Shown here: positions 5,160 to 7,718 of the stretch, one piece after another
Position numbering within the stretch: position 1 is the stretch's first letter
Layout of the letters: the number at the start of each line of letters is the position of its first letter
Assembly: GCA_048885925.1 (NCBI GenBank)
Contig: JBHLLG010000006.1
Span: forward strand, 1-64,000
DNA length: 64,000 bases
DNA from: Candidatus Hermodarchaeota archaeon
Lineage (GTDB): Archaea; Asgardarchaeota; Lokiarchaeia; Sigyniarchaeales; SOKP01
Direction: 5' to 3'
The notes under the pieces: model-generated
What the model saw: only the letters and a program-made list of their open reading frames with translations
The model's database searches: none
Told to the model about the DNA's origin: nothing
Position numbers and translations under genes: made by a program

Positions 5160-5338
5160 TTCTTGTTTAATCTACATTCCATTTTAAGTTTTTGAATATA
5201 AACATTAACTTTTAAATTTTCCAAAATCTCTTATTTGTAGAAATAAATCTCTAAAATAAATTTAAAATATGTTCAAAGATAAAAATACATATTATTCTAT
5301 TTTAATTTAAAAAAACAAAATATTGATGTGATAAACCT

Positions 5339-7718
5339 TTGGAACAAAAAGGGGCAAAAATAAAAATTGATGAGTATAAAGGACCTCTCGGTACCATTAA
5401 AGGATTCGAATTAACCACTGGTAAGATTGCTTACGGAGATGAAACAGAATGGGAACCTATGGGTCCACATCCAATGCCTCATATTCCTACATTAAGAGAT
5501 TGGTTTTTTAAGCTAATGGATAGATACAAGCCCACATATATGCCGATATATATGCACAATTGATCAGTGCATATACGGTAATTGCGATATGTGTTGCTTG
5601 TGTACCTATGGTAAATGTAATCTCTCAAAGGGAAGAACAGGGGCTTGTGGAATTAATATGGAGACACAAAATGCTCGTATAGTCGAGATTGCTTGTTGTA
5701 TAGGTGCTGCTTGTCATTCTGCGCATGGTGATCATCTCTTACATTGGCTTAAAGAGAAATATGGCAATGTTCCACTCAATTTCGGTAACAATATTGCTGT
5801 AGAAATGCCGTTAACTCGTCTAATTGTTGGAATGAAACCTGAAACATTGGAAGATTTAGAAACTGCAATGGATTGGGTGCATTACAATATAACCCAACTG
5901 TTAGCGGCGGGGCATACAGGACAAGAATCAAGTCATTTAGATTATGAATCAAAAAGCTTTTTAGCAGGATTATGCGATGCAGTAGGAATGGAAGTATCAG
6001 ATGCAGTACAAATTGCAGCTTATGGAATGCCAGTAGGTGATCCTAATGCGCCAATAGTCGAGTTAGGAATGGGTACCTTAAACCCGGAAAAAGCAAAAGT
6101 TTTAATGATCGGACATAATGTCGCTCCTGGAGTAGAATTAGTAGATTATATTCGCGAAAAGGGTTTAGATAATGAAGTTGATGTTGGAGCGATTTGTTGT
6201 ACAGCTCACGATTTAACAAGGTATTATGATGGAGCAAAAATAATCGGATCTTATTCAAGACAATTACATTATATCCGTTCTGGTTTAGCTGATGTTGTAA
6301 TGGTTGATGAGCAGTGTGTTGTCTTACAAACATATGAGGAGGCTAAAAAGGTAGGAGCACCATATATTACGACAAATGAAAAAATTATGGGTGGATTACC
6401 TGATAGAACAGGAGATCCTGTTAAGGAAATCGTTGATGATTTAGTAAGTGGTAAATTAGATGGTGTATTAATTTTAGATCCAATAAAAGCAGGCGCAGTT
6501 GCAGCTGAAACCGCTGTAAAGATTAAACCTATCAGAAATGCAAAAAGTGGTGTTCCAGACGAACAAGGATGTATTGCTATGGCAATGAATTGTAATGGAT
6601 GTGGAAACTGTCAAAGAAATTGTCCTAATGATTTACCTCTTGTAGAAGGTGTAAATTTAGCAAAGGATGGTGATTTTTCTTTACTAGCAAGTGTTTTTGA
6701 TGAATGTTTAGGATGTGGAAGATGTGAAAAAGATTGCATGAAGAATGTATCTCCCTTAACTTTAATAATGCATGCATCAAGAGAATACATCAGAACTGAG
6801 AAATATAATTGCAGATCTGGACGTGGACCAATTCAAGATACAGAAATTCGAAACGTAGGAGCTCCAATTGTCTTAGGTGAAATTCCTGGAATAGTTGCGA
6901 TTATAGGATGTTCAAATTATGCTCACGATATTCGAGAATTATATACTATGGCAGAGGAATTTCTTAGAAGAAACTATATAGTGGTAGTTAGTGGTTGTGG
7001 TGCTATGGATATTGGCCTTGTTAAGGATGAAGACGGTAAAACTCTATATGAGAAATATTCTGGTGATTTTGATCGGGGATGTTTAGTTAATGTTGGAAGT
7101 TGTGTAGCTAATGCTTGGATCACAGGTGCAGCTTGTAAAGTTGCAAATATATTTGCCAGAAGACCTTTACGTGGTAATTTTGAAGAAATTGCAGATTATA
7201 TTTTAAATAGAGTTGGTGCTGTTGGTGTTGCTTGGGGTGCATATTCTCAAAAAGCAGCTAGTATTGCCAGTATGGCTAATGGATTAGGTGTTCCCGCTGT
7301 AATTGGACCACATGGTGCAGAATATCGACGTATGTATCTTGGCAAATCATATGATGATGAATCTTGGAAAGTGTTTAATGCTCGTGATGGAACTTCGGGT
7401 CATCTAGTTGGACCTGGACCTGAACATCTTTTAACTCCAGCTGAAAGTATTGAACAGGCTATTTGTTTAGTTGCGAAATTAGCATTAAGACCTGCTGATA
7501 ATAGTAAAGGAAGAATGATAAAATTGTCTCATTGGATCGATTTAGAACGTAAATATAAGGGCGTTAAATTTCCGAATGACTTAGAAAAATTCATACGCCT
7601 TGAAGCAGATATTCCAATTAATATGAAAGATGAGATCCAAGAATATCTGAAAGAAAAAGACTGGCAACCAAAAGAGATAATAGATCCAACCCTTTTAAAA
7701 AGATTGTGTCGAACTTAG
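5339..7718 (+). CDS. cdhA: Acetyl-CoA decarbonylase/synthase complex alpha subunit (Ni-CO dehydrogenase), join(5339..5547,5582..7718), 781 aa after removal of a 34-nt intron
   Basis: ORF 5339..5563 carries the CdhA N-terminus (EWEPMGPHPMP...LRDW...RYKPTYMPI). ORF 5589..7718 continues CDMCCLCTYGKC...GACGI, GHN, ICCT, two CxxCxxCxxxC ferredoxin motifs, SGCG, GSCV. The two ORFs are out of frame by a 34-nt insert. Confidence 0.92.
5548..5581 (+). other. Candidate archaeal BHB/BHL (tRNA-endonuclease-type) intron in cdhA mRNA, 34 nt
   Basis: A 4-bp helix GCCG(5542-45)/CGGU(5576-79), a 3-nt bulge AUA(5546-48), a 9-bp stem UAUAUGCAC(5549-57)/GUGCAUAUA(5567-75) and an exon-exon helix CACAUAU(5533-39)/AUAUGUG(5587-93). 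Cutting after the 2nd nt of each bulge gives CCG ATT TGC GAT ATG (P-I-C-D-M). Confidence 0.8.

Follow-up and report, generated by a model that had tools for sequence, protein, structure and literature searches.

The window analysed in this work is a stretch of 64,000 nt from Candidatus Hermodarchaeota archaeon (positions 1 to 64,000 of contig JBHLLG010000006.1, assembly GCA_048885925.1). The genome under study (G000) is a 181-contig metagenome assembly of 3.9 Mb that has 29% G+C and is 95% complete. The subject is its only cdhA gene, together with a 34-nt insert at 5548-5581 that interrupts this gene. The presence of the insert is confirmed. Judged from sequence comparison, the insert is very probably an archaeal intron of the bulge-helix-bulge (BHB) type in the cdhA pre-mRNA. 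The gene is broken into two open reading frames (ORFs) of differing frame, as a first-pass annotation of this DNA had claimed. ORF1 (5339..5563) terminates at the TGA at 5561-5563, which lies inside the insert. ORF2 (5589..7718) encodes the Prismane/CO dehydrogenase domain (PF03063, E 1.1e-57, Pfam) as well as 4Fe-4S dicluster domains. Deletion of 5548-5581 yields one ORF of 781 codons that reads ..YMPICDMCCLC.. across the junction. The gene start at 5339 is apparently TTG in G000, and it is ATG in the orthologue of a related genome (G002). The exons, the putative intron and the parts of the predicted fold are as follows.

5339..5547, plus strand: cdhA exon 1, with a TTG start, 69 codons and 2 nt of an Ile codon; it matches the N-termini of intact CdhA orthologues in tblastn
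5548..5581, plus strand: putative 34-nt intron, to which the 5' bulge contributes 1 nt, the hairpin 27 nt, the central helix 4 nt and the 3' bulge 2 nt
5582..7718, plus strand: cdhA exon 2, which opens with the third nt of the Ile codon and continues with 711 codons and the stop
5533..5539, plus strand: 5' strand of the exon-exon helix (7 bp), which pairs with 5587-5593 in both the minimum free energy (MFE) and the centroid structure
5542..5545, plus strand: 5' exon strand (GCCG) of the central 4-bp helix H, 4/4 paired with 5576-5579
5546..5548, plus strand: 5' bulge of 3 nt (AUA), unpaired in the MFE and centroid structures, with the predicted cut at 5547/5548
5549..5575, plus strand: intron hairpin h', with a 9-bp stem (5549-5557 / 5567-5575) and a 9-nt loop
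5576..5579, plus strand: 3' intron strand (CGGU) of the central helix H, the partner of 5542-5545
5580..5586, plus strand: 3' splice-site region, an asymmetric internal loop that holds AAU (5580-5582) with the predicted cut at 5581/5582
5587..5593, plus strand: 3' strand of the exon-exon helix (7 bp), the partner of 5533-5539

The RNAfold MFE structure of 5525-5600 is the structure that the first-pass annotation had drawn plus one added pair (5541-5580), and all of its coordinates for the elements within 5533-5593 check out on the sequence. The fold has a free energy of -25.3 kcal/mol (z = -3.72), and none of 200 dinucleotide shuffles is as stable. A central helix of 4 bp lies between the two splice sites. 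The 5' bulge of 3 nt (AUA) is followed by helix h' with its 9-bp stem. On the sequence, excision at the predicted cuts restores the 781-aa ORF and its conserved motif. The motif is assigned to the relaxed HBh' or bulge-helix-loop (BHL) form because the positions adjoining the 3' bulge are unpaired, and the caution voiced earlier that the 3' site is a relaxed BHL instead of a strict BHB was right. The excision of exactly 5548-5581 that had been proposed stands in that it restores a 781-aa CdhA with the Cys motif. However, the deletion of 5549-5582 likewise yields Ile-Cys, with ATA in place of ATT, and the protein alone therefore cannot set the cut sites. The cut sites are fixed by the BHB geometry and by comparison with other inserts.

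Under the intron reading, exon positions 5542-5545 of the transcript would pair with intron positions 5576-5579. On one side of this central helix would lie the 3-nt bulge and then the 9-bp hairpin of the intron itself. The 3' splice site would be located across the helix from these, 2 nt past its end, in a loop closed by the 7-bp exon-exon helix. The splicing endonuclease EndA would cut after 5547 and after 5581, the ligase RtcB would join the exons, and the ribosome would then read an intact 781-aa CdhA. That cleavage and ligation occur, that EndA and RtcB are the enzymes, and that the cuts fall at exactly these positions is what we infer from the sequences.

The insert was also found in the DNA contigs of two further studies, a check on independent DNA that the first-pass annotation had proposed. 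The contig of run X5 spans 5200-5632 with 2 differences. The contig of run X7 spans 5459-5630 with 1 difference, which is located in the loop. Position 5562 reads A for G in the contigs of the two other studies, which turns TGA into TAA and keeps the in-frame stop. Only one contig among those compared is free of the insert; its flanks differ and it resembles the orthologue of another organism. An assembly or sequencing artefact could be suspected because the source is a metagenome assembly of 181 contigs. However, two other studies yielded contigs that read through the insert with 1-2 differences, diverged homologues of the insert exist in other genomes, and we regard the chance of an artefact as practically negligible.

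The first sample consisted of 40 related genomes, where 25 cdhA loci are readable across the site. Most of these orthologous loci (21/25) are uninterrupted at exactly the 5548-5581 site and 4/25 carry inserts. Homologous inserts of 34 nt were identified at the same site in G002 and G085. The G002 stem keeps 9/9 pairs, with one double change of G-C to A-U and one change of U-A to U-G. The comparison of orthologues that had been suggested thus recovered both homologous inserts with compensatory stem changes and a majority of orthologues that lack the insert exactly. Among 80 named cdhA loci of relatives, 69 have both anchors, of which 63 are uninterrupted and 6 carry insert types seen before. 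The named loci are left out as independent evidence because they are probably from the same genomes.

The spliced coding sequences of G000 and G002 were compared for synonymous (dS) and nonsynonymous (dN) divergence. The whole sequence gives dS 1.37, dN 0.044 and dN/dS 0.032, and the separate exons give dN/dS 0.034 (exon 1) and 0.032 (exon 2). The dN/dS between intron-bearing and intronless cdhA is 0.029. The intron differs at 6/34 nt between G000 and G002, while the proportion of synonymous differences (pS) is 0.63. Such strong constraint on both sides of a frame-breaking insert means that the insert must be removed or stepped over during expression. An inactivating insertion, where replication slippage or a short palindromic mobile element would have turned cdhA into a pseudogene, agrees with the literal reading of the DNA as two out-of-frame ORFs and with the decayed look of the copy in one relative (G020). 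It is contradicted by the dN/dS of 0.032, seen across both exons at dS 1.37, and by the status of this cdhA as the sole copy in a 95%-complete genome. The insert is also single-copy with no target-site duplication at its borders, and the same class of insert is present in an EF-2-like GTPase and four other conserved, open genes. This explanation is considered to be extremely improbable.

The 61-nt element (5533-5593) occurs once in the 3.9-Mb genome by blastn-short. An insertion resembling a miniature inverted-repeat transposable element was considered and rejected. The only full-length match in G000 is the insert itself, other matches are at most 20 nt at E >= 0.15, and no flanking direct repeat is present. 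The strongest objection to such an insertion is the purifying selection on both exons.

A structural rule was used to set the boundaries of the inserts. The intron consists of 1 nt, the hairpin, 4 nt that pair with the exon tetranucleotide located 3 positions before the hairpin, and 2 nt. The cut falls after nt 2 of the 3-nt bulge, and the rule has zero free parameters once the hairpin is seen. Applied to the family, this rule gives boundaries that keep the reading frame for 34 inserts, which are 29-34 nt long and occupy 12 sites in six genes. The sites are distributed over cdhA (6), cdhC (2), cooS, the EF-2-like GTPase, a nucleoside phosphorylase and a JAMM protease. The hot spot is a stretch of 65 nt that encodes RYKPxYMPICDMCCLCTYGKCN. 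The six cdhA sites are listed below.

cdhA site 1a: past the second base of the Ile codon, 34 nt, in G000, G002 and G085
cdhA site 1b: 1 base before site 1a, 29-32 nt, in G005/G083, G078, G088, G107 and G073, with four unrelated stems
cdhA site 2: past the Asp codon, 30-31 nt, in G069, G158 and G065
cdhA site 3: past the Leu codon, 31 nt, in G005/G083, G095, G078 and G088/G107
cdhA site 4: farther downstream, 32 nt, in G020 and G110
cdhA site 5: farther downstream, 30 nt, in G110

Splicing by the rule restores ..YMPICDMCCLCT[YF]GKC.. in 13/13 cdhA loci tested, four of which have two inserts. The three loci that cover the whole gene give spliced ORFs of 783-787 aa. A cdhA match is present in 124 family genomes, of which at least 15 have one or more inserts; the remaining genomes were judged by open-frame length only. 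The short-frame cdhA copies of G103, G051 and G110 have an intact 65-nt stretch; the stretches of G103 (C76) and G051 run to the contig end, and the introns of G110 are located elsewhere in the gene. Sites 1b and 3 are both filled in four genomes, which leaves a 21-nt exon between the two introns. Two-intron alleles with this 7-codon micro-exon were recorded for G005, G083, G078, G088 and G107 (loci L015 and L097-L100). To our knowledge, a 21-nt micro-exon between two introns has no archaeal precedent.

The pairing between exon and intron was assessed over 28 instances (27 distinct), which reduce to 19 distinct combinations of site and helix. Of the 76 cells of the exon-intron helix, 71 are paired, compared to a permutation mean of 41.7 (sd 4.1) when intron tetranucleotides were exchanged among sites, and 0/20000 permutations reach 71. 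The 3-nt spacing of the bulge is identical across the 28 instances. The first-pass annotation had named a lack of conservation of the 4-bp helix and the 3-nt bulge as grounds for giving up the intron reading; both are conserved across the inserts. The four sequences of cdhA site 3 have 96.2% of their stem cells paired with 5/13 pairs changed on both sides. Only 4/500 shuffles reach the observed value, and a slid partner is paired at 44-60%. Structure is conserved over sequence in the form of covariation in G002, at cdhA site 3 and in the cdhC inserts of G099 and G000.

The G000 genome was scanned with the structural rule combined with ORF joining. The strict scan (central helix 4/4, stem >=7, loop <=14) gave 10 hits, of which 6 are convincing. 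They are listed below with the length of the putative intron.

cdhA: 34 nt, in the Cys motif
EF-2-like GTPase (aEF2): 30 nt, between the G1 and G2 motifs
AMP/thymidine-phosphorylase-like gene (deoA): 30 nt, within DKHSTGG
cdhC: 30 nt, in G000
cooS-type CO dehydrogenase: 32 nt, in G000
JAMM/MPN protease: 31 nt, within the HSHPG..S..D motif

The suggestion in the first-pass annotation that Asgard archaea have a wider class of such mRNA introns is borne out to this extent by five more G000 genes and by further sites in relatives that obey the rule, and its proposal to look for split ORFs that BHB-bounded inserts would rejoin was productive. Pfam coordinates continue over the break when the halves are run separately (ACS_CODH_B_C 154|156, Prismane 457|458, GTP_EFTU 35|49). 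In the split phosphorylase-like gene, the Glycos_transf_3 match begins at profile position 11. In cooS, the intron forms a strict hBHBh' whose exon-exon helix (6 bp) adjoins the 3-nt 3' bulge. Each of the six G000 introns interrupts the most conserved motif of its protein, a preference that is also known from self-splicing introns and inteins. Three of the six interrupted genes are cdhA, cdhC and cooS. The cbf5 gene is uninterrupted in G000.

Translational bypass is the explanation where the ribosome would hop over 29-34 nt and the mRNA is never cut. Bypass is known from phage T4 gene 60 and the yeast mitochondrial byp elements, and it needs matched take-off and landing codons. Short hairpin-bearing inserts with a stop codon usually soon past the break would suit bypass, as would the clearly functional genes, and an uncut mRNA is compatible with the DNA data. 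However, bypass fails here because there are no matching take-off and landing codons (AUA vs AAU in cdhA, GAU vs AAA in EF-2, UAU vs CCA in cooS, and UUC vs UAA in JAMM). It also leaves both the exon-intron complementarity and the complete hBHBh' of the cooS insert unexplained. Bypass is accordingly given very little credence, and the inserts are treated below as BHB-type introns.

The distribution of these introns differs among the genes. The cooS intron is present in G000 only, among 20 genomes with a match. The EF-2-like intron is present in seven genomes of the genus and exactly absent from others; an eighth carrier is inferred from open-frame length alone. The G000 site of cdhC is also filled in G099, where two compensatory stem pairs differ. 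A second cdhC site located 15 nt upstream is filled in G004, G017 and G124. At both cdhC sites (loci L035 and L188-L191), the exon ends at the cut with UGGC plus either AA or UA; the corresponding sequence at cdhA site 1b is UGCC-AA. This common exon context may be a preferred insertion context.

The remaining hits include two that were rejected since they join neighbouring genes and not exons. The C75 hit links genes that we take from the junction peptides to be agmatinase-like and deoxyhypusine-synthase-like, and the hit at C1:293786 links what are presumably a glycyl-radical enzyme and its activase. A 33-nt BHB-like hairpin with an in-frame stop was observed at G000:C19:18316-18348 (L038), between a TrmI/GCD14 methyltransferase ORF and a tRNA_bind ORF. 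These are two separate domains by Pfam, and the hairpin could be an intron that joins both ORFs or the ORFs could merely be two neighbour genes. A weakly structured 67-nt candidate at ~1500-1575 of G000:C133 would fuse a 143-aa ORF with a small-GTPase ORF directly before the P-loop. A relaxed scan of G000 (3 contiguous pairs with a folding-energy filter) showed neither enrichment nor any clear further case, with filters that discarded cdhA, cdhC and cooS themselves. The number of six genes is a lower bound because the scans detect only ORF-breaking inserts up to ~127 nt.

The predicted splicing enzymes were searched in G000. RtcB is encoded on C12 (E 4.8e-171). One EndA is encoded (C22:7600-8214) that matches PF01974 and PF02778. 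Its best PDB match is the Aeropyrum pernix chain 3p1z_B, and residues K44-P45-R46 of the crenarchaea-specific loop are identical. This loop confers cleavage of relaxed and BHL motifs on the A. pernix EndA, with K44 required, according to the part of that report at hand (PMC3241643). Asgard EndA is described as (alpha-beta)2 with this same loop (L1) in the available text of another report (PMC5829648). ARAGORN identified 31 tRNA genes in the 95%-complete genome, of which 19 have an intron, and many further tRNA genes probably escape detection because of their interruptions. This richness agrees with a report that, in the portion available, describes Asgard tRNA genes as heavily interrupted (bioRxiv 10.64898/2026.10.13.758758). 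The assignment of the window to the Asgard archaea, made at the outset from the sequence, is borne out by the nearest named cdhA records (up to 95% identity), which are labelled Promethearchaeota/Promethearchaeia, the current Asgard phylum name. A 2.6-kb contig labelled Maribacter sp. (L176) has an Asgard-type cdhA with 87% identity and is probably mis-binned.

Several observations weigh against the intron reading. The spliced cdhA junction is unseen; among the sequencing runs recorded as RNA, none was found to contain the stretch, and the RNA runs X21 and X22 gave 0 contigs on the gene and are uninformative on its expression. In place of a strict 3-nt bulge, the 3' site of cdhA has an internal loop (1x6 or 2x7) that a displaced 7-bp helix closes. 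The introns of aEF2, deoA, cdhC and JAMM are also without a helix adjoining the 3' bulge, and cdhC of G124 has a 5x2 internal loop instead of the 3-nt bulge. The hairpin of L103 is weak, and L074 and L082 have stem mismatches. The EF-2 alignment of seven sequences has 96.7% of its cells paired with little variation, and its covariation is like that of shuffles (one double change, 87/500). A loose-threshold scan of G000 found no excess of ORF-joining hairpins in the correct length class (6818 / 6924 / 7091); either the class numbers a handful in G000 rather than hundreds, or the scan is insensitive. The EndA beta paralogue was not found in G000 by Pfam (PF01974/PF02778 at E <= 5) or by jackhmmer on ORFs of >= 80 aa. 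The site-1a insert of G020 measures 33 nt; the Cys motif that follows it is degenerate, and its scaffold has an N run. That scaffold (L018, G020:C22, ~935-1155) has a 10-N run, a foreign-looking G+C-rich piece and a 1-nt deletion near the 3' end. The insert of G020 is held to be unreliable because this copy looks chimeric or poorly assembled.

Both the failure to find a beta subunit and the mostly relaxed 3' sites leave room for excision by machinery other than EndA and RtcB, either by an unknown hairpin nuclease acting on RNA or by programmed DNA deletion in part of the population, as the identity of the enzyme is inferred. However, the geometry is exactly that of an EndA substrate, with a 4-bp helix, a 3-nt bulge and cuts 2 nt into the bulges, and the EndA alpha subunit has the loop that permits relaxed motifs. 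The DNA deletion is further opposed by the contigs of two other studies that retain the insert, where the sole insert-free contig looks like an orthologue of another organism. Other machinery is hardly likely. The core claim of the first-pass annotation, a tRNA-endonuclease-type intron (BHB/BHL) in the cdhA mRNA, is supported by the geometry of helix and bulge, by the homologous inserts and by the intact orthologues. With inserts of similar shape in several further protein genes, cells of this archaeal family probably splice some of their mRNAs.

The introns look like tolerated, perhaps mobile, elements. The on/off switch that the first-pass annotation had seen in such splicing is conjectural. 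In the tree of the EF-2-like gene, the intron label needs 6 changes, of which at least 4 are forced by well-supported branches, and intron-bearing G000 is sister to intronless G011. The EF-2 intron copies are homologous, and repeated exact loss or transfer by recombination is thus the simplest reading. A bolder and doubtful proposal is that mobile BHB mini-introns colonise the sites that encode the most conserved motifs in one Asgard family. They would spread by the reversed EndA/RtcB reaction on mRNAs that resemble a half-BHB and would be copied back into DNA, and genes would thereby acquire multiple introns and a micro-exon of 21 nt. The expression of CO dehydrogenase/acetyl-CoA synthase (CODH/ACS) would then routinely involve splicing by the tRNA machinery, which might act as a gate; the link to CODH/ACS expression is drawn because 3/6 interrupted genes are cdhA, cdhC and cooS. 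If this proposal were true, archaeal relatives of eukaryotes would have mosaic protein genes and obligatory mRNA splicing that are independent of spliceosomal introns.

The findings in this work add at least 12 sites in six genes of one Asgard family, including central carbon-fixation enzymes and a translation GTPase. In the literature covered, archaeal protein-coding BHB introns comprise those of the crenarchaeal cbf5 family, plus one in a 5' untranslated region (UTR) (PMC7714728). If splicing is confirmed, the archaea most closely related to eukaryotes would routinely mature mRNAs with their tRNA-splicing machinery. Genes annotated as "frameshifted pseudogenes" in Asgard metagenome-assembled genomes would then need to be re-read, which would alter metabolic reconstructions such as that of a working Wood-Ljungdahl pathway. 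The introns would also provide a compact substrate for the study of splicing versus coupled translation, of arrival at conserved sites and of precise loss. No report of BHB introns in Asgard mRNAs was found in the literature covered, which lies outside subscription journals and supplements. The mechanism would be of a known kind because BHB introns in mRNA are already known from cbf5 and from a Haloferax 5' UTR. New here are the lineage and the genes concerned, the number of sites, the alleles in which several introns enclose a micro-exon, and the concentration in CODH/ACS genes.

Introns in the cbf5 pre-mRNA of Crenarchaeota were reportedly described by Watanabe and co-workers in 2002. The introns identified in this work are similar to those of crenarchaeal cbf5 in that an intron of BHB type lies within an ORF and its removal is ascribed to the tRNA splicing endonuclease. 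Both lineages also have a crenarchaeal-type EndA, and both exhibit gain and loss among relatives. Unlike the cbf5 introns, the present ones are found in an Asgard host and in cdhA, cdhC, cooS, the EF-2-like GTPase, the phosphorylase and JAMM. They also occupy several sites per gene, with two introns 21 nt apart, and they are known from DNA alone. Splicing of the cbf5 pre-mRNA was found experimentally in Crenarchaeota, as stated in the accessible part of the report by Yokobori et al. (2009, PMC2738675).

The BHB intron in the 5' UTR of HVO_1309 in Haloferax volcanii was shown by in vivo knock-down and in vitro cleavage, and the part of that report at hand gives cbf5 as the sole mRNA case before it (PMC7714728). 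The present introns resemble it as mRNA substrates of archaeal EndA, which is a prediction here. In contrast, the HVO_1309 intron is located in a UTR and does not interrupt a reading frame. The non-canonical BHB/BHL introns of archaeal tRNA genes, which are abundant in Asgard archaea, share the motif, the predicted enzymes and the relaxed HBh'/BHL forms, as far as they are described in the available text of two reports (bioRxiv 10.64898/2026.10.13.758758; PMC5829648). Short length and many independent gains are also shared, within the same texts. Unlike the splicing of tRNA introns, the splicing of an mRNA intron must compete with translation.

The HAC1/XBP1 system is also similar in that a short frame-changing mRNA intron is excised without the spliceosome by an endonuclease and an RtcB-type ligase, which are predicted here. 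HAC1/XBP1 splicing uses the nuclease Ire1 at stem-loop sites rather than BHB motifs and acts as a regulated stress switch. In contrast, the present introns have BHB motifs and would depend on EndA, and regulation as a stress switch is a feature of HAC1/XBP1. RtcB acts in XBP1 splicing according to the accessible part of PMC8718801. T4 gene 60 and the byps are similar in that short hairpin-containing gaps interrupt the coding regions of functional genes. Unlike those elements, the inserts of this archaeal family have unmatched codons at their borders and exhibit an exon-intron helix.

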